Positions 11,413 to 60,284 of a DNA stretch of 64,000 nt are shown here, in pieces. Below the pieces are notes generated by a model that worked only from the letters and a program-made list of their open reading frames with translations, did not search any database and had not been told where the DNA came from. How positions within the stretch are numbered: the stretch's first letter is position 1; each line of letters starts with the position of its first letter. The position numbers were made by a program, and so were the translations under genes. The DNA lies in contig JALUTT010000170.1 in the NCBI GenBank assembly GCA_027021705.1, forward strand, positions 2,429-66,428. The letters are read 5' to 3'. The stretch comes from Anaerolineae bacterium (GTDB lineage Bacteria > Chloroflexota > Anaerolineae > S140-20).

Positions 11413-11786
11413 GTACCCATCAGGTCACGATACCACCCGACCTCGTGGAGCAAATCCGTGAGTTTGTACAAGAGAAGCGGATAAGCGTTGAAGAGTTCGT
11501 GAGCCAGGCTATCCAGGAGCAATTGGAGAGGTTGGCCGATCAGAAGTTGGCAGCGGAAGGGAGGGCATTCGTCGCTATGCATCAGCAGTTGGTCAAACAG
11601 TACCTGGGCCAGTTTGTGGCCATCCACAATGGTCAGGTCGTGGATGCTGACGCCGACTTTGCGGCTTTGCTATTGCGAGTACAAGATCGCTTCGGGAGAG
11701 TACCCGTGCTTATCCGTCAAGTAGGTGCAGCTTCTGTGGTGGAACTGCGTGCCCCCAGTCCTCGCCTGGAGTGGAAGAAGCAATGA
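11409..11786 (+). CDS. small hypothetical protein, N-terminal ribbon-helix-helix-like segment
   Basis: About 125 aa. ATG at 11409 overlaps the DUF192 stop (ATGA). The long ORF 11040-11786 is probably over-extended upstream. Translationally coupled to the downstream protease gene. Confidence 0.45.
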   Translation: MSTHQVTIPPDLVEQIREFVQEKRISVEEFVSQAIQEQLERLADQKLAAEGRAFVAMHQQLVKQYLGQFVAIHNGQVVDADADFAALLLRVQDRFGRVPVLIRQVGAASVVELRAPSPRLEWKKQ

Positions 11787-12169
11787 ACCGCTATCCCTAC
11801 AGCACTGAGTACGTCCCAGCAGCACCTGTGGTGCAAATCCACCTGGGAGCCCCAGGAGAATCCACTATCTTGGGTCCTCTCGAGGCTTTTGTGGATACCG
11901 GCGCTGATGCTACCCTCATCCCGGTGGAATACCTACGGCAAGTTGAAGCCAGAAAAGTCGACTGGGCCGTTTTACGTAGCCAGTGGGGGGAACGCCGTCC
12001 GGTGCCTCTCTACGCTGTAGCAATGCAGATCAACCATCACTACTTTGCTGCTATATGGGTGGTAGGCGATGAGTACAGCGAGGAAGTCGTGCTGGGGCGC
12101 AATGTGTTGAATCAGATCCGCTTACTCCTGGATGGTCCTGCGATGACGCTAGAATTGCTTGAGGGTTGA
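11771..12169 (+). CDS. retropepsin-like aspartic protease (clan AA)
   Basis: VDTGADATLIP catalytic D-T/S-G-A motif. About 130 aa, single-lobe size. The alternative ATG at 11783 overlaps the upstream stop (ATGA). Confidence 0.6.
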   Translation: MEEAMNRYPYSTEYVPAAPVVQIHLGAPGESTILGPLEAFVDTGADATLIPVEYLRQVEARKVDWAVLRSQWGERRPVPLYAVAMQINHHYFAAIWVVGDEYSEEVVLGRNVLNQIRLLLDGPAMTLELLEG

Positions 12170-13676
12170 TGTGAGCTCCAAGGTCCAAAGGCAAAAGGGA
12201 GACTCCCAACAGAAGCCAGGGCGTGGTTCCCGCATCCTCGGAGCCGGGCTCGCCCTACTGCTGGCGACGGCCCTCTTCCTGGCCTCGTCGGTCCTGGCCG
12301 TGGCAGCAGCGGAGTCCTCAGGCATGAGCAACGGGGAGGCCATCACCCTGGCCCTGACCCCCACGCCTACCCCTCAAAGGCCGATCACCTACGTGGTTCG
12401 GCCAGGCGACACGCTCTTCTCCATCGCCCAACGCTATAGCACGACGGTCGAGGCCATCGTCCAGGCCAACGGGCTGACCGACCCCAACCTTTTGGCGGTC
12501 GGTCAAGAACTGGTGATCCCCGCGCCGACAGGGCCGCTCCCGGCCCGGACCACCTGGACCGTCGGGCCGGGGGAGACGCTGGCGGGGATCGCCCGGCGCT
12601 ACGGAATCGCCGTCCAGGAGATCGCCCGGCGAAGCGGGCTGGTCAACCCCGCCCAGCTCTACGTCGGTCAGTCGCTGGCGATCAGCGACGCGGAGATAGA
12701 GCCGCGCCCCGGCGGCCTCTACGTCGTCCGACCCGGGGAGACGCTCCTCTCCATCGCCCTGCGCCACCGCCTCTCTCCCTGGCTGCTGGTCCAGGTCAAC
12801 GGGCTGCCGGGGCTCGAGCCGCTGCTGGCCGGCCAGCCCCTCTACATCCCCGGCCAGGAACCGGTCACGCCCACCCTGCCTTTCCCCTTCCTCACCGCCG
12901 ACCTCAAGCCGGTGCCGGCCGTGCAAGGAGAGACGGTCCGGCTGGCCGTGCGCACGGAGCAGCCGGTGACGCTGACGGGCCGCCTGGGCGACACACCCCT
13001 GACGTTCGCCCGGGAAGGGGACGCCTACTACGCGCTGGCGGGCATCTACGCGATGGCGTCGCCGGGGCTCTACCCCCTGGTGCTCACGGCAACGACGCCC
13101 TTGGGAGAGAAGGGCTGGCTAGAGACGAGGGTGCTGGTGACGGCCGGCGACTACGCCCGGGAGCAGATCATCCTGCCGCCGGACCGCGCTGCCCTCCTGG
13201 ACCCAGAGGTGATCCGGGCGGAGCGGGAGCGGATGCGGGCGCTGGGGGCGATCTTCACGCCCCAACGGTACTGGCAGGGCCGCTTTCAGAAGCCGGTGGA
13301 CAACCCCATCACCTCTCGCTTCGGCACCCGACGCTCCTACAACGGGGGGCCGTACACCAGCTTCCACGGTGGGACCGACTTCTACGGGCTGACGGGGGAT
13401 CCGGTGCGGGCACCGGCGGCGGGGGTTGTCGTCCTGGCCGAGCCGCTCCAGGTGCGGGGGAATGCCATCGTCCTGGACCACGGCTGGGGGGTCTACACGG
13501 GCTACTGGCACCTCTCGGTCATCAGCGTGACGGTGGGGCAGCGGGTGGAGCCGGGGCAGGTGATCGGGGCCATCGGCTCCACGGGGCTCTCCACCGGATC
13601 GCACCTGCACTGGGAGATGTGGGTGAACAACGTAGCCGTCAACGCCCTCCAGTGGACGGAGGAGCCCTTCCCTTAA
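12159..13676 (+). CDS. LysM-repeat peptidoglycan-binding protein with C-terminal M23 metallopeptidase domain
   Basis: Four LysM-like repeats (YVVRPGDTLFSIAQRY..., VGPGETLAGIARRYG..., etc.). C-terminal HxxxD ... HLHWE M23 motifs. Confidence 0.8.
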   Translation: MRVDVSSKVQRQKGDSQQKPGRGSRILGAGLALLLATALFLASSVLAVAAAESSGMSNGEAITLALTPTPTPQRPITYVVRPGDTLFSIAQRYSTTVEAIVQANGLTDPNLLAVGQELVIPAPTGPLPARTTWTVGPGETLAGIARRYGIAVQEIARRSGLVNPAQLYVGQSLAISDAEIEPRPGGLYVVRPGETLLSIALRHRLSPWLLVQVNGLPGLEPLLAGQPLYIPGQEPVTPTLPFPFLTADLKPVPAVQGETVRLAVRTEQPVTLTGRLGDTPLTFAREGDAYYALAGIYAMASPGLYPLVLTATTPLGEKGWLETRVLVTAGDYAREQIILPPDRAALLDPEVIRAERERMRALGAIFTPQRYWQGRFQKPVDNPITSRFGTRRSYNGGPYTSFHGGTDFYGLTGDPVRAPAAGVVVLAEPLQVRGNAIVLDHGWGVYTGYWHLSVISVTVGQRVEPGQVIGAIGSTGLSTGSHLHWEMWVNNVAVNALQWTEEPFP

Positions 13677-19020: not shown

Positions 19021-19722
19021 TCAGCGGATCAGAAGACGTTGGCGCAGGTAGGCCACCCGATCGCTCATCTTCTCCAGGCGGATCCGTGCCCGCAGCAGGA
19101 CCAGGTACAGGACGGTGAAGGTCGCGATGGAGAAGAGCAGCGTGTGCAGCATCCGAGGGGTGATCGAGAAGCCACCTTGAGCTCCCGGCGCGTTGGGATT
19201 CAGGATGTCCGGATGGATGGTCCGCCACCAGCGGATGGCCATAAAGCTGAGGGGTACGGTGATGAAGGCGATGATTCCATAAACGGCGGCGAAGCGGGCG
19301 CGCCGACCGGGCTCTTCCAGCGCACCGCGCAGCATGAAGTAGGCCAAGTAGATCAACCACTGGATGGCACTGATGGTCAGACGGGGCTCCCAGGTCCACC
19401 AGGTGTTCCAGACGGGCCGGGCCCACAGGGAGCCGGTGATCAGCACCATCGTAATGAAGAGGGTGCCCACTTCGGCCGAGGAGAGGGCTAGGACATCCCA
19501 GCGCCGCTCCCGGCGGATCAGGTAGGCAATGCTGGCCAACATCGTGACGAAGAAGGCGAAGAAGCCGACCCAGGCGGCGGAGACGTGGAAGTAGAAGATG
19601 CGCTGCACATCTCCCATCGTCCTCTCGCGCGGCGCGTAGAGGAAGACCATCAACAGGGCCAGGGCGACCATCAGGGCCGCCAGGCCAGCGAGCAGGGGTT
19701 CCCAGTTCCTTGAGCGTGACAC
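19021..19722 (-). CDS. ccmC: haem exporter protein CcmC
   Basis: WWD domain (W..WWTWEPRLT) and polytopic membrane topology. Confidence 0.8.
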   Translation of the reverse strand: MSRSRNWEPLLAGLAALMVALALLMVFLYAPRERTMGDVQRIFYFHVSAAWVGFFAFFVTMLASIAYLIRRERRWDVLALSSAEVGTLFITMVLITGSLWARPVWNTWWTWEPRLTISAIQWLIYLAYFMLRGALEEPGRRARFAAVYGIIAFITVPLSFMAIRWWRTIHPDILNPNAPGAQGGFSITPRMLHTLLFSIATFTVLYLVLLRARIRLEKMSDRVAYLRQRLLIR

Positions 19723-19761: not shown

Positions 19762-20448
19762 TTACTCTTCCACGACGAAGTCGAAGAGCATCGTGCTGAC
19801 TGTGACGATGATGACGTCGTAGACAACGAGCAGACGGAGCCAGTAGGCCACATCAGCGATAGGCAGGGCTTCCAGAAAGCCGCCAGTGGCCCGGACGGCG
19901 GCCATCAGCACGGGGACGGCGGCAGGCAGGAGCAGGATGGGCAACATCACCTCGCGGGCTCGGGTGTTGACGGCCATCGTGGCGAAGAGGGTGCCCACAG
20001 CAGCGTAGCCGGCTGTCCCTAAGAGCAGGGTCAGCAGCACGCCGGCCCGGAAGACGGGCAGGTTGAAGAGGACGGCGAAGACGGGCAGGACAACCGCTTC
20101 CACCAGGGTGATGAAGAAGAAGTTGCCGATGGCCTTGCCCAGGTAGATGGTGCTGCGGTCCATCGGGGCCAGCAACATCCCGTCGAAACAGCGGTTCTGC
20201 TCTTCCTGGGCCATCGAGCGGCTGAGGCCCAGGCTCCCGGCGAAGGCCACGGTGACCCAGAGGACGCCGGGGGCCGTCTGTTGGGCCGTGGCTGCCCGCA
20301 GGTCCAGGGCGAAGCTGAAGATCAGCACCGTCAGCAAGGCGAAGACGAGCATCGAGCTGAGCATCTCTCGGGTGCGCAGCTCGGTGATCACATCTTTGGT
20401 TAGGATGGCGAGGAGGCTGCGGAGGAAATTCAAAGACGCTCGCTCCAA
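19762..20448 (-). CDS. ccmB: haem exporter permease CcmB
   Basis: About 228 aa. Six-TM ABC-2-type permease with a CcmB-like N-terminus (LRSLLAILTKDV..ELRTRE). Confidence 0.75.
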   Translation of the reverse strand: MERASLNFLRSLLAILTKDVITELRTREMLSSMLVFALLTVLIFSFALDLRAATAQQTAPGVLWVTVAFAGSLGLSRSMAQEEQNRCFDGMLLAPMDRSTIYLGKAIGNFFFITLVEAVVLPVFAVLFNLPVFRAGVLLTLLLGTAGYAAVGTLFATMAVNTRAREVMLPILLLPAAVPVLMAAVRATGGFLEALPIADVAYWLRLLVVYDVIIVTVSTMLFDFVVEE

Positions 20449-21317
20449 GTTGTCTTTCGCCAGTGTGATGGTCCCAAATGCTCCACGAGACCCATGTCGC
20501 GAAGGATTTGAAGCTGTTGCCGGACCTTGGCCTGCACATTCCGATTGTTCGGGTAGTGTTGCCGGAAGACGGCTTCCCGGGCGTAGAGGTCCTGATTGGT
20601 GAACTCCCCGTCGGGCAGGTGGGTGTAAACCAACTTTAGCCAGCCGACAAGGTCATGGGCAAGGGGTGAGGGGCGTCGGAGATGCCGTACCTTCTCCCGA
20701 AACGCCCTGGTCAGGTCCCGGTCTGCTCGCCCGCCCTGCCGGGGACTGCGCCTCTTCCTCGTGCAAAGCGCTTCGTACAGCTCCAGGAACTCCTCATCGG
20801 GCTCGACGCGGTGGGGATCGAACTTGAGGCGGTTGTAGACCCCGTAGAGGTCGGAGATGATCTCCGTCTCCAGAGAGGCCTGGATGACCATGTTGACTTC
20901 CACGTTGTCCTCCAACCCCCCTTGGGTCAAATTTGACGACCCCACGATGGCGACGACGTCTGCGTCGTTGCGCATCAGGTAGAGCTTCGGATGGTAAAGG
21001 GATGCGGTACCGGGATCGGTGTAGCAATACAGAGCCAATTGCGAAGCCCGGGACGTCTCGTACAGATGCCACAGTGCTTGGGGCTCGGTGACCGTCGCAT
21101 CCAATCCGACGAGGAACTCTACGGCCCCTCCGGTCTGGAGCACCTTCTGGAGAGGAGGCCACACGCGATCCAGGCCCGATTGGGAGAGAAAGGCCACGGC
21201 GATCCTCACATCGCGGGAGCGTTCAAGAGCGGATTGCAGAACCGAGGCCATCGTCTGTTGAGCGTTGTCGGCGACGGTAATCTGCATCCTGGTGCCGCCT
21301 TTCTGGGAATTCCCCAA
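20430..21317 (-). CDS. PLD-family (single HKD) nuclease-like protein with a distinct C-terminal domain
   Basis: HKD signature YHPKLYLMRNDADVVAIVGSSNLTQGG in the N-terminal half. The C-terminal roughly 140 aa is unrelated and basic/helical. The gene lies between ccmA and ccmB and overlaps the ccmB start by 19 bp. Confidence 0.6.
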   Translation of the reverse strand: MGNSQKGGTRMQITVADNAQQTMASVLQSALERSRDVRIAVAFLSQSGLDRVWPPLQKVLQTGGAVEFLVGLDATVTEPQALWHLYETSRASQLALYCYTDPGTASLYHPKLYLMRNDADVVAIVGSSNLTQGGLEDNVEVNMVIQASLETEIISDLYGVYNRLKFDPHRVEPDEEFLELYEALCTRKRRSPRQGGRADRDLTRAFREKVRHLRRPSPLAHDLVGWLKLVYTHLPDGEFTNQDLYAREAVFRQHYPNNRNVQAKVRQQLQILRDMGLVEHLGPSHWRKTTWSERL

Positions 21318-21347
21318 GCTGGATGACGGAGCTTTGCCGACGGGCGG

Positions 21348-22052
21348 TCACCCCGACACCACCCGCTCATACACACCGGGGAAAGCGTGCGGGTCAATCT
21401 CGCTCCGGGGGGCCTGGTAGACAACCTTGCCCCGGTTCAGGATGACGACCCGATGGCAGCGGTTCAGCGCCCGCTCGATGTTGTGGGTGGTGAGCAGGAC
21501 AGTACGGCCGGCGGCGGCAACTTCCTGTAGGATCCCATCCAGGATGGCCGCTGCCCGCTGGTCTAGCCCTGTGTAGGGCTCGTCGAAGAAGACGAGGCGG
21601 GGTCGGTGCAGGACGGCCCGGGCGATGGCCAGCCGCTGTTGCATCCCCCGCGAGTAGGTGCGCACGGGGTCGTGCCGCCGCGCCGACAGATCCACCATGG
21701 TCAGCATCTCGTCAATCCGCGCGTCCAGCTCCGAATTGTCCAGGCCGTAGAGCCGACCGTAGAAGCGCAGGTTCTCCTCGGCTGTCAGGTGGGGGTAGAG
21801 CAGGGTCTGGTGGGAGATGAGGCCGATCTGACGCCGGACGGCCGGCCCTGCCTTTTGCACATCGTAGCCGGCCACCTGCACCACCCCGGCCGTCGGTTTG
21901 CTCAGCGTGGCCAGGATGCGTAGCAGCGTCGTCTTGCCCGCTCCATTCGGCCCCAGGATGGAGACGAACTCCCCCGGCTCCACGTCCAGGTTCACACCCC
22001 GCAGCGCTGTGTGGACGCCAAAGGCCTTGACCAGTCCCCGCACGTGGATCAT
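21348..22052 (-). CDS. ccmA: ABC transporter ATP-binding protein CcmA (haem exporter)
   Basis: Walker A GPNGAGKTTLLRIL. Signature and Walker B motifs present. Genomic context. Confidence 0.8.
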   Translation of the reverse strand: MIHVRGLVKAFGVHTALRGVNLDVEPGEFVSILGPNGAGKTTLLRILATLSKPTAGVVQVAGYDVQKAGPAVRRQIGLISHQTLLYPHLTAEENLRFYGRLYGLDNSELDARIDEMLTMVDLSARRHDPVRTYSRGMQQRLAIARAVLHRPRLVFFDEPYTGLDQRAAAILDGILQEVAAAGRTVLLTTHNIERALNRCHRVVILNRGKVVYQAPRSEIDPHAFPGVYERVVSG

Positions 22053-24065: not shown

Positions 24066-24651
24066 CTACTGGGCAGGCGCACCACAGCGGGCGCAGAACC
24101 GGTCATCGGAATCCAGAGGGGAGCCACACTGGGAGCAGACCGGCAGCGGGGTGCCACACCGGGAGCAGAAACGGTCTCCCGGATCCCCTCGATGCCCACA
24201 GGATGGGCAGGCAGGTCCCACCGCTGTTGACGTTTCGACGGTCGGCTCCCGGCCCCCGGAGGATGCCACAGCGGCGGGCTCCGCGACCGGCTGGCCGCGC
24301 TGGCGTCGCAGTGCGGCGACCTGCCGCTCGATCTCGGCCTCCAGCGCTGCCCGCCCATCTCCACCGGTCAGTTCATCAATGCGTTTCAGAATCTCCACCC
24401 CCTGGGCAACGTACTGATCCCGCAGGGGTTTGTAGTCCTCTTCGGCGATCTTGCCGGTCTGGTAGTCGAAATCCAGTTCCCGGATGGCTGTGTAGATCGC
24501 CTCACGCTGCTCGTACAGTTCCTTCAATGGGTTCTCGTCGTCGGTGAGGGGAGCGGGTTCATCGGAGGACTGGAAGAGGGGGCGGAGAATCCAGGCGACG
24601 GTCACCAGCAGCAAGCCGGCTCCAAAAAGCAGGGCTCCAAGGTTCATCGGT
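24066..24651 (-). CDS. single-pass membrane protein with a C-terminal double zinc-ribbon
   Basis: TM LGALLFGAGLLLVTVAWIL. C-terminal CPSCGHRG..FCSRCGTPL..CSQCGSPL..FCARCGAP. Start taken at MNLGALL (the long ORF extends to 24743). Confidence 0.5.
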
Positions 24652-24773
24652 GCGTATTCCGTATTCCGTATTTCGTGTTTCGCATTTCGTGCTTCGTATG
24701 CCGTCCCGCCCTTCACGCTTCCTGGGCTCGTTTGGCGTTTCACGTCTCACAGGCCGCGTGCTGCGGGGGGCGC

Positions 24774-54167: not shown

Positions 54168-55412
54168 ATGAGACGTCAGGGGCTGTTCATCCTTGGGGCG
54201 TTGTTGTTGATGGCGCTCCTGGTCGTAGCCTGTGCCGGCCCTCAGGGACCCGAGGGACCGCCCGGTCCGGCAGGACCGCCGGGGCCGGAAGGGCCTCAGG
54301 GTCCTCCAGGCCCCCAAGGCCCTCCAGGGCCTCAAGGACCGCCAGGGCCACAGGGACCACCAGGAGAGGCCGCCGCTGCCGAATACGTCGGGAGCGACGT
54401 TTGCGCTTCGTGCCATGAGGAGATTTATGATGTCTTTATAAAGTCGGGCCACGCCTGGAAGCTGAATCCGGTCGTGGACGGCAAGCCCCCGGAGTACCCC
54501 TTCACCGAGGTCCCAGAGCCGCCGGAAGGCTACACCTGGGATGACATCGCTTACGTCATCGGGGGCTACAACTGGAAAGCCCGGTTTATTGACAAAAACG
54601 GTTACATCATCACCGGCCCCGACGAGAATGCCACGACCCAGTACAACTTCGCCAATCCCGAGGTGGGCAAGGAGGCCGGCTGGGTGGCCTACCATCCCGG
54701 CCAGGAGAAGCCCTACAATTGCGGGCCCTGCCACACCACCGGTTACAAGCCGGAGGGCCACCAGGACGGCCTGGAAGGGATCGTCGGCACCTGGGCGGAG
54801 CCGGGCATCAAGTGCGAGCGGTGCCATGGCCCAGGCAGCCTGCACGTTGCCAACCCCTATACCGTGCGCATGGTCGTGGACCGCGATTCCGAGCAGTGTG
54901 GTGAATGCCATCTGCGGGGCTCGCCCGAAGCGGTCAACGCCAAAGGTGGCTTCATCCAGCACCACGAGCAATACGAGGAGCTCTTCCAGAGCAAGCATAT
55001 CACCCTGCGGTGCGTGATCTGCCACGACCCCCACGCCGGAGTGGTGCAACTGCGCAAAGCGGGCGAGCAGACCACACGCACCCAGTGTGAGAACTGTCAC
55101 TTCCAGGAGGCCAAGTACCAGAACTCCGAGGTACACAAGGCCGTGGGGGTGACCTGTATTGACTGCCATATGCCGCGCATCGTCAAGAGTGCCTGGGGAG
55201 ACGCCGAGAAGTTCACGGGGGACATCCGCACCCATATGATGGCCATTGACCCGGATCAGATCGAGCAGTTCACCGAAGATGGCAAGACGGCGCTGTCGCA
55301 GATCGGGCTGAACTTCGCCTGCCGCCATTGCCACGTCGAAGGGGGGAAGGCGACCCCGAAGACCGACGATGAACTGCGCGAGAGGGCAACAGGCTATCAC
55401 GCCCGGCCTTAG
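54168..55412 (+). CDS. octahaem c-type cytochrome lipoprotein with N-terminal collagen-like (Gly-Pro-X)15 tether
   Basis: Lipobox LLVVAC. 15 consecutive G-P-X triplets. Eight CxxCH motifs (CASCH, CGPCH, CERCH, CGECH, CVICH, CENCH, CIDCH, CRHCH). Confidence 0.8.
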
Positions 55413-55526
55413 ACCGACCGATCCGGATCGTTGCCAAGAGCACGTCTGCGGGCCGGGGACTGCCTCCCGGCCCGCATTCCCATCTGGGCTCGCCGTCCAG
55501 CAGCGCAGGATAGTGGGTGGATAACA

Positions 55527-56639
55527 ATGAAGCGGTTTGCCGTGCTCCCAGGTCTGGTGGGGCTGGTTCTGGTGAGCCTCGCCCTCGTAGCCGCCCCCAC
55601 AGCGGCTCAGCCGGCCCGGCCCACCCCGTCGGTCCCGAATGTGGGTGATGAGACCTGCCTGGCCTGTCACGACACACCGGGGTTGCAGATCACGCTCCCC
55701 TCGGGTGAGCCCCTCTACCTGACCGTGGACCGGGTGATCTACAAGACCTCGACCCACGGGCGGCTGGGCTATGCCTGCGTCCAGTGCCACACGGATATTG
55801 GCGAGTTCCCTCATCCGCCCCTACAGGTGACCAGCCGGCGGGAATTCACGTTGAAGCTGTACCGGTCCTGTGCTCGGTGCCACGAGGACAAGTACGAGGC
55901 CACCCTGGACAGCGTTCACCAGGCTGCCCTGGCTGCAGGCCACCCGGAGGCTGCCGTCTGCACCGACTGTCACGGGGCCCACAACATCGGGCCACCGGAC
56001 AAACCGCGCAGCCACATCTCCCGAACCTGCCGCCGTTGCCATTCCCAGATCTATGACCTGTATGAGAAGAGCGTCCACGGCGCGGCGCTGATTGACGAAG
56101 GGAACCCTGATGTCCCCTCTTGCACCGACTGTCACGGGGTGCACAGCGTCGAAGGGCCCTCCACCAGCCCGTTTCGCCTCTTCTCACCACAGATCTGTGC
56201 CCGCTGCCACGCCGATCCGAAGCTGATGGGGCGCTATGGCATCAGTACCGACGTCTTCGACACCTACGTCGCCGACTTCCACGGCACCACCGTCATCCTC
56301 TTCGAGGCCATTGCCCCGGATCAGGAGACCAACAAGCCGGTCTGCATTGACTGTCATGGCGTGCACGACATCCAGACGACGGACGATCCGGAGAGCCGGG
56401 TCATTAAGGAAAACCTGCTTGCCACCTGCCGGAAGTGCCATCCTGATGCCACGGCCAACTTCCCTACCGCCTGGCTCAGCCACTACCGGCCCAGTCCCGA
56501 GCACGCACCGCTGGTCTACTTCGTCAACCTGTTCTACGAGATCCTGATCCCCACGGTGATCGGGGCAATGGTGATCTTCAACGCTACCGACATCTACCGA
56601 CGGGTTGTCTGCCGCCTTCGGGAGCGCCGCCATGGGTGA
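55527..56639 (+). CDS. nonahaem c-type cytochrome with signal peptide and C-terminal TM anchor
   Basis: Nine CxxCH motifs. Signal MKRFAVLPGLVGLVLVSLALVAAP. C-terminal hydrophobic helix ILIPTVIGAMVIF. Confidence 0.75.
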   Translation: MKRFAVLPGLVGLVLVSLALVAAPTAAQPARPTPSVPNVGDETCLACHDTPGLQITLPSGEPLYLTVDRVIYKTSTHGRLGYACVQCHTDIGEFPHPPLQVTSRREFTLKLYRSCARCHEDKYEATLDSVHQAALAAGHPEAAVCTDCHGAHNIGPPDKPRSHISRTCRRCHSQIYDLYEKSVHGAALIDEGNPDVPSCTDCHGVHSVEGPSTSPFRLFSPQICARCHADPKLMGRYGISTDVFDTYVADFHGTTVILFEAIAPDQETNKPVCIDCHGVHDIQTTDDPESRVIKENLLATCRKCHPDATANFPTAWLSHYRPSPEHAPLVYFVNLFYEILIPTVIGAMVIFNATDIYRRVVCRLRERRHG

Positions 56640-57786
56640 GGTTCGTAAGTACCTGCGTTTCCCCCTCTCCTACCGCCTCGAGCACGGGCTGCTTATGCTC
56701 AGCTTCACGGTCCTGGCCATCACCGGCCTGGTCCAGAAGTACGCCGGCACCGGCCTTGCCGAAGGGGTCGTGGCCTTGATGGGGGGCATCGAGCGCGTGC
56801 GCATCACGCATCGGGTCGCCGCCATCGTCCTGATGATCGAGACGGTCTACCACGTGGGGGCTGTGGGCTATCGCCTCTTCGTACACCGCGCCCGCCCCAC
56901 AATCCTCCTGACGTTGGACGATGGGCGCATCGCGCTCCAAATGCTGCTGTACAACCTAGGCCTGCGGAAGGAACGCCCCCTTCAAGGTCGCTACACAGTA
57001 GAAGAGAAGATCGAGTACTGGGCCGTGGTCTGGGGAACGCTGATTATGGCGGTCACAGGGTTTATGATGTGGAACCCCATCGCCACCACACGCCTCTTGC
57101 CTGGGGAGTTCGTCCCGGCGGCCAAGGCGGCCCACGGCAACGAAGCCCTTCTGGCCGTGCTGGCCATCCTCGTCTGGCACGTCTACCACGTGCACCTCCG
57201 CCACTTCAACAAGAGCATCTTCACCGGCTACCTCACCGAAGAGGAGATGCGGGAAGAGCATCCCCTGGAGCTGACCACGGTGGAGACGAGGGCCGCTGTG
57301 GAGAGCCCCAGGGTACTGGCCCGGAGGCGCTGGGCCTTCTTCTCCATCTACGGCACGCTGGCAGCCGCCATGTTGGTGGGCATCTACCTCTTCGTCACTT
57401 TCGAGGAGACGGCCATCACGACGGTACCGCCGCCGGAACAGGTGGTGATCTACGCACCGCTGACGCCGACGCCTCTGCCGACGCCGTTGCCTACCCCCAC
57501 GCCGCTGCCTCAAGTGGCCGCCTCCTGGAAGGGGGGGGTGGCCATGCTGCTCCAGGAGCGGTGTGGCAACTGCCACAACAGCACGGCCAGGTTGGGTGGC
57601 CTGGACCTCAGCAGCTACGAAGGAGTCCTGGTGGGCGGTGCCAGCGGCCCGGTCATCGTTCCGGGTGATCCCGCAGCCAGCCTGCTGGTGGTCCGGCAGG
57701 CGGCGGGGGACCATCCTGGCCAGCTCAGTGGTGAAGAGCTGGCCCTGATCCGCCAGTGGATTCAGGCGGGTGCACCAGAACAGTGA
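56632..57786 (+). CDS. membrane b-type cytochrome (cytochrome b561 / hydrogenase-cytb-like 4-5 TM) fused to C-terminal PSCyt1-type c-haem domain
   Basis: Conserved His in TM helices (HRVAAIV..., HGNEALLAV..WHVYHVH). C-terminal CGNCH...GGLDLSSYEGVLVGGASGPVIVPGDPAASLLV. 8-bp overlap with the upstream gene. Confidence 0.65.
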   Translation: MGEVRKYLRFPLSYRLEHGLLMLSFTVLAITGLVQKYAGTGLAEGVVALMGGIERVRITHRVAAIVLMIETVYHVGAVGYRLFVHRARPTILLTLDDGRIALQMLLYNLGLRKERPLQGRYTVEEKIEYWAVVWGTLIMAVTGFMMWNPIATTRLLPGEFVPAAKAAHGNEALLAVLAILVWHVYHVHLRHFNKSIFTGYLTEEEMREEHPLELTTVETRAAVESPRVLARRRWAFFSIYGTLAAAMLVGIYLFVTFEETAITTVPPPEQVVIYAPLTPTPLPTPLPTPTPLPQVAASWKGGVAMLLQERCGNCHNSTARLGGLDLSSYEGVLVGGASGPVIVPGDPAASLLVVRQAAGDHPGQLSGEELALIRQWIQAGAPEQ

Positions 57787-57822
57787 GGGCGATGGGGAGT
57801 CGAGGACGAGAGGAGAAGGACG

Positions 57823-59520
57823 ATGGGTCGTATCCGGCAGGTGTTACGCAGCCTCTTCTTCCCCCCGCCAGGGACCCGGCTATGGCGGTGGCTATTGCCC
57901 TACGCCATCCTGGGCGTGATGACCCTGGTGGTGCTGATCCTCGGCGCGTATAGCTGGGAGTACACCAACTCTCCGGAGTTCTGTGGCACAGCCTGCCACA
58001 CCATGCCTCCCGAGTACACCGCCTACCTGGTCTCACCCCACGCCCGGGTGAAGTGCGTCGAGTGCCACATCGGACGCAGCTTCATCGCCACCCAGATTTC
58101 ACGCAAGGCTGGGGACATTGAGCACATCGTCTCCTTGGCTTTCCGGCGCTACGAGTTCCCCATCTACGTCAGGACGATGCGGCCGGCGCGGGAGAGCTGC
58201 GAACGCTGTCACTACCCGGAGAAGTTCTCCGACGACAGCCTGCGCGAGATCAAGCGCTTCCGCGACGACCGGGACAACACGCCCTACAGCATCTACCTCA
58301 CGCTGAAGACGGGCGGTGGCAGCAAGCGCCAAGGACTGGGAAGGGGCATCCACTGGCACATCGAGAACCCCGTCTACTACCTGGCCCTGGACCCCGATGA
58401 GCAGGTGATCCCCTACGTGCGGGTGGTGGGCGACGATGGGTCCGTCACCGAGTATGTGGATGTCGAGGCCGACATCAACCCGGCGGAGATAGACCCGGCC
58501 GACCTGAAGGAGATGGACTGCATCACTTGTCACAACCGCATCACCCACCTGATCCGCCCGCCTGACGATATTGTAGACCAACTGATGGCGCGCCGAGTGA
58601 TCTCGCCGGAGATCCCGGAGATCCACCGCAAGGCCGTCGAGGCGCTCAGCACCCGTTACGACTCCATCGAGATAGCGATGAACGCCATTGCTGGCCTGAT
58701 GGGCTACTATCAGACCTACTACCCGGATTTCTACGCGGCCAACCGGGATCAGATTGAGGCGGCCATTGCGGCCCTGCAGGAGGCCTACCGACAGAGCGTC
58801 TTCCCGGAGCAGAAGGCCGATTGGACCACCCACGTCAACGAGATTGGTCACAAGTACTCACCCGGCTGTTTCCGTTGCCACGACGGCAAGCACTTGAACG
58901 CGCAACAAGAGGCCATCCGGCTGGAGTGCAACCTCTGTCACTCGATCCCCGTGGTGGTCGGCCCCAACGACTTCGTCGCCAGGATCGAGATCAGTCGGGG
59001 GCCGGAGCCTAAGTCCCACCTGCACGCCAACTGGATTGGCCTGCACCGCGACATCTTCGACGACACCTGCGCCAACTGCCATACCACCGAGGACCCCGGA
59101 GGGACCAGCAACGTCTCCTTCTGCTCCAACAGCGCCTGTCACGGTACGGTGTGGGAGTACGCTGGCCTGGATGCGCCGGAACTGCGCAAGATCCTGGCCC
59201 AGCAGATCCCCCAGATTGCCCCGACCCCGACCCCCATCCCCGAAGGCATCGCCCTTACCTACGCCGATACCATCGGGCCGCTGCTCCGGGACCGCTGTGG
59301 CACCTGCCACGGGGAGAAGGGGATCCAGGGGCTCAACCTGACCACCTACGAAGGGCTGCTGAAGGGTGGGGCCGGCGGGCCAGCCATCGTGCCCGGCGAC
59401 CCGGACAAGAGCTTGCTCGTTCAGGAGCAGCGGGGGGAGCAACCCCACTTCGGTCAGCTGACCGACCAAGAGCTGGAATTGGTCATCCAATGGATCGAGG
59501 CTGGTGCACCGAAGGACTAA
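57823..59520 (+). CDS. NapC/NirT/NrfH-like membrane-anchored multihaem cytochrome c with C-terminal PSCyt1 domain
   Basis: N-terminal TM plus CGTACH / CVECH tetrahaem quinol-dehydrogenase-like arrangement. Further CxxCH motifs (CERCH, CITCH, CFRCH, CNLCH, CANCH). C-terminal CGTCHGEKGIQGLNLTTYEGLLKGGAGGPAIVPGDPDKSLLV. Confidence 0.7.
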   Translation: MGRIRQVLRSLFFPPPGTRLWRWLLPYAILGVMTLVVLILGAYSWEYTNSPEFCGTACHTMPPEYTAYLVSPHARVKCVECHIGRSFIATQISRKAGDIEHIVSLAFRRYEFPIYVRTMRPARESCERCHYPEKFSDDSLREIKRFRDDRDNTPYSIYLTLKTGGGSKRQGLGRGIHWHIENPVYYLALDPDEQVIPYVRVVGDDGSVTEYVDVEADINPAEIDPADLKEMDCITCHNRITHLIRPPDDIVDQLMARRVISPEIPEIHRKAVEALSTRYDSIEIAMNAIAGLMGYYQTYYPDFYAANRDQIEAAIAALQEAYRQSVFPEQKADWTTHVNEIGHKYSPGCFRCHDGKHLNAQQEAIRLECNLCHSIPVVVGPNDFVARIEISRGPEPKSHLHANWIGLHRDIFDDTCANCHTTEDPGGTSNVSFCSNSACHGTVWEYAGLDAPELRKILAQQIPQIAPTPTPIPEGIALTYADTIGPLLRDRCGTCHGEKGIQGLNLTTYEGLLKGGAGGPAIVPGDPDKSLLVQEQRGEQPHFGQLTDQELELVIQWIEAGAPKD

Positions 59521-59778: not shown

Positions 59779-59852
59779 GCCGAGGTAGCTCAGCCTGGTA
59801 GAGCACTTGACTGAAAATCAAGGAGTCCCCAGTTCAAATCTGGGCCTCGGCA
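59779..59852 (+). tRNA. tRNA-Phe (GAA)
   Basis: Manual cloverleaf folding. Acceptor GCCGAGG/CCTCGGC. Anticodon loop CTGAAAA. T-loop GGTTCAAATCC. Confidence 0.8.
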
Positions 59853-59860
59853 TTGTGCCA

Positions 59861-59934
<74 letters not shown>

Positions 59935-59957
59935 TGATCTCCCTCCGGGGAGCCACT

Positions 59958-60028
59958 GGCGGCGTCGCCAAGGGGTAAGGCAAGGGTCTGCAAAACCCTC
60001 ATCGCCGGTTCGAATCCGGCCGCCGCCT
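59958..60028 (+). tRNA. tRNA-Cys (GCA)
   Basis: Acceptor GGCGGCG/CGCCGCC. Anticodon loop CTGCAAA. T-loop GGTTCGAATCC. Confidence 0.8.
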
Positions 60029-60093
60029 CTGAGGGAATGCAACGGGAGGGGTCAAGGCCGGTAGCGATTTGCTATCGGCTTTCGTTGTTGTGT

Positions 60094-60175
60094 GGGGCGG
60101 TGGCGGAACGGTAGACGCATCGGTCTTAAAAACCGAGGGGCTCGGCCCGTGTGGGTTCGAATCCCACCCGCCCTA
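60094..60175 (+). tRNA. tRNA-Leu (TAA), long variable arm
   Basis: D-arm TGGCGGAACGGTAGACGC. Anticodon loop CTTAAAA. Variable arm GGGGCTCGGCCCGTG. T-loop GGTTCGAATCC. The 5' end is approximate. Confidence 0.7.
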
Positions 60176-60284
60176 CTTCCCCCGCTCCTCTTGCGAGGCC
60201 CTCCCCTTGTGACCCGCCCTCCCTCAAACCAAGTGGAACTGGCAAGGGCAACCGACCGGGGTTGCCTTTGCTTTAGGAGGCAAC

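Follow-up and report, generated by a model that had tools for sequence, protein, structure and literature searches.

The gene described here lies in a window of 64,000 nucleotides of DNA from an Anaerolineae bacterium (contig JALUTT010000170.1), where it separates ccmA from ccmB in an operon for cytochrome c maturation (ccm). It encodes a phospholipase D (PLD) nuclease domain joined to a DpnI-type winged helix (wH) and is referred to as PLD-wH. The gene is an insertion into the ccm operon and not a component of the ccm machinery. Its product is most probably a solitary modification-dependent (type IV-like) restriction enzyme, encoded by a horizontally acquired passenger of the operon, and a probability of about 65% is assigned to this reading. 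An earlier note on this DNA, prepared from the sequence alone, had raised the entry of a defence or selfish gene into the operon among its explanations, and this remains the best one, as none of 80 related ccm loci carries PLD-wH.

Both halves of the protein can be assigned to known domains. The uninterrupted open reading frame (ORF) that the earlier note placed between ccmA and ccmB is present at 20430..21317; it lies on the minus strand, an orientation not given at the time, encodes 295 aa from a TTG codon and holds the string YHPKLYLMRNDADVVAIVGSSNLTQGG in the ORF list. Within this frame, Pfam PLDc_2 (PF13091) matches aa 36-148 with 38.7 bits against a cut-off of 27, and Pfam DpnI_C (PF17726) matches aa 232-288 with 60.7 bits against a cut-off of 23 (E = 1.6e-16). 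Counted from the ATG codon at 21287, the protein begins with a single-HKD PLD nuclease domain (aa 1-160, 20808..21287, minus strand), delimited by PF13091, the structure model and Foldseek. It continues with a helical linker (aa 161-215, 20643..20807, minus strand) containing helices 165-180 and 187-201 in the model, and with a C-terminal DpnI-type winged helix (aa 216-278, 20454..20642, minus strand), recognized by PF17726 and by the match to DpnI 4esj. The winged helix is a putative reader of Gm6ATC, that is, of GATC carrying N6-methyladenine (m6A). The top PADLOC match of the protein is the C-terminus of a methyl-directed type II restriction endonuclease.

Profile and structure comparisons lead to the same assignment. 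A profile of 36 family members searched against the PDB matches DpnI (4esj/4kyw) over its last 58 residues with E = 1.5e-11, while its N-terminal domain matches SauUSI (2.6e-10), NgoAVII (7e-6) and BfiI (5e-3); the window protein as a single sequence reaches DpnI 4esj with E = 1.8e-6. The AlphaFold model computed from the 36-member alignment (predicted local distance difference test, pLDDT, 91.9; predicted template modelling score, pTM, 0.89) shows a PLD domain of the alpha/beta type, followed by two linker helices and by a C-terminal domain of the order helix-strand-helix-helix-hairpin. When the full-length model was compared with the PDB using Foldseek, the SauUSI PLD domain, NgoAVII, NucT, BfiI and Nuc were among the top matches, with E values for the PLD domain from 4e-12 to 2e-7 for the first four of these (SauUSI 3.8e-12). 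Three results carry the winged-helix assignment, namely the match to Pfam, the profile match to the PDB and the full-length model with its high confidence; a single-sequence AlphaFold prediction of the C-terminal 80 aa was all-helical with a pLDDT of 66.9 and was not used for fold searching. The description of the gene as a single-HKD, PLD-family nuclease-like gene is thus upheld by the PF13091 score and the Foldseek matches, and its BfiI-like architecture by the combination of a nuclease with a DNA-reading domain. The C-terminal half, left earlier as a targeting domain of unspecified kind, turns out to be the DpnI-type winged helix.

Other assignments were considered and rejected. A phospholipase D or cardiolipin synthase type does not fit a protein with one HKD motif only, whose best structural matches are nucleases. 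DrmC of DISARM was dismissed on a score of 19.2 bits against a cut-off of 133 (NF038319), with ccm genes as neighbours and the partner genes absent. PbeA, a further PADLOC match, scored far under its cut-off and likewise had no partner genes.

The residues expected of an active nuclease are all present. The catalytic segment H99-x-K101 ... G116-S-S-N119 ... E130 (20898..20993, minus strand) was defined from the alignment of homologues, and none of H99, K101, G116-S-S-N119 and E130 varies among 36 homologues with identities as low as 44%. The catalytic residues of BfiI are H105, K107, N125 and E136 (PMC4081073), and in the profile alignment to 2c1l the spacing of H99, K101, N119 and E130 (+2, +18, +11) equals that of the BfiI residues. 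The motif HxK(x4)D(x6)GSxN, as first described for this protein, is right with respect to H99/K101 and the GSSN loop. It is wrong with respect to the aspartate: the fifth residue after the lysine is Arg106, and no conserved Asp lies between K101 and G116. Loss of the catalytic histidine or lysine in orthologues, which had been suggested as a check on nuclease activity, was not seen in the homologues, both residues being invariant, so the reading as a nuclease is not refuted.

Conservation extends to the reader domain. The recognition helix NVQAKVRQQLQILRD (aa 251-264, 20496..20537, minus strand) aligns to IKEKIRQQLQILRD of DpnI, and AKVRQQLQILRD of this helix is near-identical to DpnI EKIRQQLQILRD. 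In the winged helix of DpnI, the residues less than 5 A from the m6A methyl groups are E228, K229, R231, Q232 and Q235 (PMC3424567); these align with A253, K254, R256, Q257 and Q260 of PLD-wH. K254, R256, Q257 and Q260 are invariant in the family, so that four of the five methyl-pocket residues of DpnI are retained.

The borders of the gene could be refined by comparison with an 87%-identical orthologue (locus L003), which comes from a different metagenome. The longest ORF extends to the TTG at 21317, a codon that is not kept in the orthologue; the ATG at 21287 and the GAAAGG/GAAGGGG stretch upstream of it are kept. Gene callers also place the start at ATG 21287, and the identical 285-aa protein occurs on two public contigs. 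The true start is almost certainly this ATG, giving a gene of 285 aa at 20430..21287 on the minus strand. The spacer between ccmA and PLD-wH consequently measures 60 nt from the conserved ATG (21288..21347, minus strand) and not the 30 bp first given; on comparison with the orthologue, it carries a purine-rich GAAAGG resembling a ribosome-binding site 10 nt before the ATG.

At the other border, the last 7 aa and the stop codon (TTWSERL, 20430..20453, minus strand) form a lineage-specific tail that overlaps the ccmB start. The usual end of the family is ...WRKV, and the TTWSERL extension is found only in the window protein and its 87% orthologue; the overlap with ccmB exists because this tail carries PLD-wH beyond the usual family end. 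The overlap of 19 bp reported earlier is correct for the longest ccmB ORF, which begins with TTG at 20448. The orthologue has CTG in place of that codon but keeps the TTG at 20433, and from this conserved start the overlap shrinks to a 4-bp TTGA stop/start junction. On the coding strand from the cytochrome c gene to ccmC, no sigma-70-like promoter or intrinsic terminator was detected by an E. coli-type consensus, a negative result that counts as weak evidence. PLD-wH is probably read through with the ccm operon and translationally coupled to ccmB via the 4-bp overlap; co-transcription, as already proposed, is probable given this conserved overlap and the lack of a detected promoter or terminator.

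The ORF is confirmed as a real gene and not a chance ORF, because both Pfam cut-offs are passed, at least 302 homologues exist and the ratio of nonsynonymous to synonymous substitution rates (dN/dS) against the 87% orthologue is 0.13. This ratio is 0.16 in the PLD domain, 0.23 in the linker, which is the least constrained part, and 0.04 in the winged helix. The window protein and the orthologue have the same length and the same placement. Between the two lineages, CcmA, CcmB and CcmC are 95-98% identical and PLD-wH is 87% identical; a dN/dS of 0.13 despite this faster divergence indicates that PLD-wH is under selection as a protein, most strongly on the reader domain.

The distribution of the gene shows that it is an insertion and not a ccm component, because linkage to ccm genes is restricted to the window and its 87% relative. 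A CcmB probe was used to fetch 80 Chloroflexota ccm loci from species-representative genomes; the best CcmB identity among them is 67%, so the window's own species is not included. A PLD-wH homologue was found in none of these 80 loci. The premise that ccmA and ccmB are normally adjacent is correct, since this is the arrangement in 69 of the 77 loci with an upstream ccmA, with at most 134 bp between the aligned segments. Among 33 full-length family loci, only two are next to ccm genes, namely the window's contig and the 87% orthologue; the remaining 31 are not ccm-adjacent. In these other genomes, family members are located after rpsI, between a glycosyltransferase gene and fmt, after a sigma-70 gene, overlapping ogt, after a nickel-iron (NiFe) hydrogenase subunit gene, and next to a DDE transposase, a Fic protein or a nucleotidyltransferase/HEPN pair. 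The hydrogenase context was met at two loci (L118, 3298-5837; L119, 94-2396), where members at 36-39% identity lie directly downstream of the NiFe hydrogenase large-subunit gene, so that here too the nuclease occupies the end of an operon with a housekeeping role. Inteins (Intein_splicing + LAGLIDADG) were also seen near PLD-wH twice, in a DUF362 protein and in DnaE (L004, 7717-10524; L178, 1-3118), and this is probably coincidental.

No recurrent partner gene emerged: the 65 neighbours of 24 family loci contain 69 Pfam families. PLD-wH is described as a solitary, horizontally moving gene because its contexts are varied, a recurrent partner is missing and only one methyltransferase is adjacent among the loci. 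The comparison of GC content at third codon positions (GC3) with the neighbours, proposed in the earlier note, shows a slightly atypical gene: its GC3 of 0.745 is the second lowest among 39 window genes longer than 150 aa (mean 0.828, z = -1.75). Signs of a transposon, insertion sequence or other mobile element were looked for and not found: flanking direct or inverted repeat pairs at the PLD-wH borders were not convincing, the window's ccm cluster contains no transposase, and the nearest tRNA is at 59.8 kb.

A family of this kind has already been published. In their search for fusions of winged helices with nucleases, Helbrecht et al. 2024 (PMC11037411) recognized 27 predicted enzymes as a PLD-wH group, including Aba4572I from an Anaerolineaceae bacterium and CbaI from a Chloroflexi bacterium, and proposed them as putative Gm6ATC-dependent type IV restriction enzymes. 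CbaI lowered the transformation of Dam+ but not of Dam- E. coli, other non-DpnI wH fusions cut outside their recognition site, and for 87% of the wH fusions the three flanking genes on each side include no DNA methyltransferase; CbaI adjoins genes for Leu-tRNA ligase and menaquinone methyltransferase (PMC11037411). Judged by its domain architecture, the window gene is a member of this family, fitting every feature tested. Like Aba4572I and CbaI, it has an N-terminal PLD domain and a C-terminal DpnI-like winged helix, comes from the same phylum and stands alone in a housekeeping neighbourhood; the comparison is by description only, as PMC11037411 gives neither sequences nor accessions. No REBASE link was found in the NCBI names of family members. 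There is no earlier report of a PLD-wH gene located in a ccm operon and translationally coupled to ccmB.

The family is considerably larger than the 27 members of that report. A word-indexed search returned at least 302 close homologues, the top 120 of which are all about 280 aa long with the same two Pfam domains; they come from Chloroflexota, Anaerolineae and Dehalococcoidia metagenome-assembled genomes, and such names as they have go no further than "HKD family nuclease" or "phospholipase D-like domain-containing protein". In metagenome contigs, 458 relatives were counted, and an exhaustive profile search of 1.84 billion representatives gave 102 matches at E <= 1e-30, with approximately 45-50 full-length PLD-wH clusters at 50% identity. 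Plasmid and phage collections yielded single-domain matches only and no full-length homologue, and IMG/VR yielded one full-length match at 36% identity. Many further proteins combine this PLD domain and linker with other C-terminal regions that Pfam does not match. Sister groups P0179, P0186, P0192, P0199 (about 310 aa), P0225, P0229 and P0235 (about 400 aa) share the PLD domain and linker. They match profile positions 1-217 with E from 1e-45 to 1e-28, but Pfam recognizes nothing in their last 90-200 residues; these C-termini may be DNA-reader domains on the same nuclease chassis.

Comparison with characterized systems helps to define what the enzyme may do. R.DpnI of Streptococcus pneumoniae (type IIM/IIE; PDB 4esj, 4kyw) shares the homologous C-terminal winged helix (PF17726), including the near-identical helix K-[IV]-R-Q-Q-L-Q-I-L-R-D. 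Its own catalytic domain is an Mg-dependent PD-(D/E)XK domain, which itself reads Gm6ATC and cuts inside the site. PLD-wH differs from it in the replacement of E228 by alanine and in its nuclease, which by analogy would be metal-independent, non-specific and expected to cut outside the site. BfiI/BmrI and NgoAVII are similar to PLD-wH in having a single-HKD N-terminal nuclease, with H-x-K...N...E at identical spacing, and a C-terminal DNA reader; as for these enzymes, PLD-wH would be expected to form homodimers around a single common active site and to act through a covalent phospho-histidine. However, their reader is a B3-like barrel that recognizes unmodified sequence, with cognate methyltransferases, whereas PLD-wH has a methyl-dependent type of winged helix and no methyltransferase present. 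The type IV enzyme SauUSI (PDB 7clg) is likewise modification-dependent with a PLD nuclease, and it is the best PLD structural match and PDB sequence match. Unlike PLD-wH, it is an ATP-dependent protein of about 950 aa with a helicase and a DUF3427 (SRA-like) reader, and it targets 5-methylcytosine and 5-hydroxymethylcytosine instead of m6A. DrmC of DISARM is also a single PLD-domain defence protein with weak hidden Markov model similarity, but it has no winged helix, and PLD-wH has no DrmA, DrmB or methyltransferase neighbours.

The genomic surroundings were also inspected for modification genes and target sites. The 64-kb window contains no DNA methyltransferase or other restriction-modification gene, and no methyltransferase lies within two genes of PLD-wH in 23 of 24 family loci. 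GATC occurs 398 times in the window (observed/expected ratio, O/E, 0.78; approximately one site per 160 bp), with five sites inside the PLD-wH gene; because the sites are so frequent, the host would have to be without adenine methylation of GATC.

A separate observation concerns CATG, which is strongly avoided in this lineage. The window has 65 CATG sites where 225 are expected (O/E 0.29), and the O/E of the 87% relative is 0.16; across 62 related Chloroflexota loci, the median is 0.92 and the minimum 0.54. Low values were likewise noted for CTAG and GTAC in the window lineage. Such avoidance suggests long exposure to a CATG-specific restriction system. Cm6ATG would fit a relaxed S-m6A-T-S specificity, but CATG avoidance as a property of the PLD-wH family was rejected, since the O/E pooled over the other PLD-wH hosts is 0.90.

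Taken as a restriction enzyme, PLD-wH could operate as follows. Two subunits would join their single-HKD domains to build a composite active site that is metal-independent, as is known for the single-HKD nucleases Nuc and BfiI (PMC4081073, PMC2853115). By analogy with these enzymes, His99 of one subunit would attack the phosphodiester to form a covalent phospho-histidine intermediate, with one strand cut at a time. The C-terminal winged helices would read fully adenine-methylated ApT sites, most likely Gm6ATC or a related S-m6A-T-S sequence, and would position the non-specific nuclease so that it cuts nearby DNA. Incoming Dam-methylated phage or plasmid DNA would then be cleaved, and the DNA of the host would be safe only if its own GATC is unmethylated. 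In this view, an ancestor of the present Anaerolineae-like lineage received the gene between ccmA and ccmB, in the direction of the operon, and the gene would be expressed with the ccm operon while having no function in cytochrome c maturation.

Several points weigh against this reading. Aba4572I behaves anomalously, with a toxicity in Dam- cells that is reduced in Dam+ cells; no PLD-wH member has been purified or shown to cut in vitro, expression or purification of both Aba4572I and CbaI having failed, and the authors note that toxicity could mean tight binding instead of cleavage (PMC11037411). Only some 10% of wH fusions possess the full GATC/m6A motif, and its presence was the criterion by which enzymes were selected for testing (PMC11037411). 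In the PLD-wH family itself, the pocket residue E228 of DpnI is replaced by alanine (A253). Furthermore, an amino-methyltransferase adjoins Aba4572I (PMC11037411), an N6_N4 DNA methyltransferase gene at locus L112 (1231-1908) lies directly upstream of the PLD-wH gene and overlaps its start by 8 bp, and at L180 a methyltransferase (11564-12493) is encoded 4.7 kb from the PLD-wH gene of that locus; some members may therefore belong to a classical restriction-modification arrangement. The absence of Dam from the host is required by the model, and 64 kb is too little sequence to judge it. Finally, scans with a sigma-70 consensus may miss Chloroflexota promoters. As a side remark, L112 is a low-GC metagenomic locus that echoes the methyltransferase beside Aba4572I, and the methyltransferases at L112 and L180 raise the question of self-restriction for some members.

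The uncertainty about the exact target is real. PLD-wH may be a nuclease directed at something else, such as a Cm6ATG-like ApT context, another modification, or unmodified DNA with an unlinked host methyltransferase providing protection. The winged helix of DpnI tolerates S-m6A-T-S and few wH fusions carry the full GATC motif (PMC11037411), which, together with the E228 replacement, the methyltransferases at L112 and beside Aba4572I and the scarcity of CATG in the window lineage, gives this alternative some weight. It is nevertheless unlikely: the four invariant reader residues correspond to DpnI residues that form the methyl pocket and contact bases, Dam-dependent toxicity was seen with CbaI, which shares phylum and architecture with PLD-wH, CATG is not avoided in other PLD-wH hosts, and nearly all family loci have no adjacent methyltransferase. 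A less probable variant is a binder of methylated DNA whose PLD domain does not cleave, acting as a regulator or as a block to replication or transcription of methylated invaders. This would suit the published inability to separate tight binding from cleavage and the fact that no member has been purified (PMC11037411), but it would leave unexplained why neither the four BfiI-type catalytic residues nor the GSSN loop vary across the family, why the PLD domain is under purifying selection and why its closest structures are active nucleases.

Two further explanations, which concern the position of the gene more than its target, are poorly supported. The gene could be an inactive remnant of an old insertion, kept since its removal would disrupt ccmB expression; the slightly atypical GC3, the 3' end merged into the ccmB start region through the 7-aa extension and the faster divergence than that of its neighbours are in line with this. 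A remnant would hardly be expected to preserve an intact frame of equal length in two lineages, low dN/dS values throughout and lowest in the winged helix, and every family-invariant residue, and the explanation is accordingly very improbable. The least credible proposal is that PLD-wH is integral to cytochrome c maturation or to haem export as an accessory factor of this lineage, being the repurposed HKD protein considered in the earlier note. The proposal draws on the tight position between ccmA and ccmB conserved in two lineages, on the translational coupling to ccmB and on VIT1, another occupant of the junction in relatives and an iron transporter that could plausibly be haem-related. That proposal fails on distribution, since related ccm loci are devoid of the gene and the family is found elsewhere in unrelated contexts. 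Moreover, both domains are directed to DNA, one by its nuclease fold and the other as a methyl-DNA reader; no signal peptide or membrane segment was detected in the PLD-wH sequence, though the pathway acts at the membrane; and the protein evolves faster than CcmA, CcmB and CcmC.

The operon into which PLD-wH is inserted is otherwise a full System I cluster. Its order is CcmE, CcmF, CcmH, thioredoxin-like proteins, a dihaem cytochrome c, CcmA, PLD-wH, CcmB, CcmC, a 48-aa ORF, a DsbD/CcdA-type membrane protein and a TlpA-like redoxin. The upstream neighbour ccmA (21348..22052, minus strand) encodes the ATP-binding cassette ATPase of the haem exporter (PF00005; TIGR01189 148 bits vs 131.6). The downstream neighbour ccmB (19762..20433, minus strand; PF03379, 112 bits) encodes 223 aa from the conserved TTG, with gene calls on two contigs as further evidence, its longest ORF being 19762..20448, and ccmC (19021..19722, minus strand; PF01578, 110 bits) is the next gene of the operon. 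A zinc-ribbon (DZR/Zn_Ribbon) gene at 24066-24743 on the minus strand, between the thioredoxin-like and dihaem cytochrome c genes, has the lowest GC3 of the window (0.70); it is a second non-ccm passenger within the cluster and is absent from this position at L003. Elsewhere in the window, three proteins match Cytochrom_c3_2 and two match an MtrC/MtrF-like domain. These matches may correspond to the four large co-oriented ORFs at 54168-59520, followed by a tRNA-Phe/Gly/Cys/Leu array at 59779-60176. The host appears to have many c-type cytochromes, in keeping with a ccm operon that is essential.

The ccmA-ccmB junction is occupied in other genomes as well. Of the 77 related loci, 4 contain gene-sized insertions, each of which runs in the direction of the operon. 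In the closest relative (L011, 4338-4953), the insert is a toxin-antitoxin pair of DUF433 and DUF5615 (PIN-like); in L030 (4158-4964) and L033 (4130-4936), it is a VIT1 family transporter; and in L061 (1541-2700), it comprises a nucleotidyltransferase and an M24 peptidase. Four further ccmA-ccmB gaps of 173-291 bp contain no convincing ORF. The variety of these inserts hints that the junction tolerates or attracts different cargo in Anaerolineae. A bolder and rather doubtful extension is that the junction is a privileged landing site, at which small promoterless, recombinase-free cassettes, such as the putative type IV nuclease here, the toxin-antitoxin pair of the closest relative and a nucleotidyltransferase elsewhere, insert repeatedly in operon orientation and are retained by read-through from, and translational entanglement with, an essential operon. 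If true, this would represent a route of "operon hitch-hiking" for defence or selfish genes that is distinct from defence islands.

The placement of PLD-wH is unusual, while the kind of protein is already published and biochemically uncharacterised. Knowledge of cytochrome maturation is unchanged by these results. A gene that is labelled publicly as "phospholipase D-like domain-containing protein" or "HKD family nuclease" is given a specific, testable function. A solitary defence nuclease can reside in an essential housekeeping operon, outside any defence island, where it would be missed by island-based discovery. With a membership far above 27, a concentration in Chloroflexota and purifying selection, the PLD-wH family presents a stronger case for a working restriction family.

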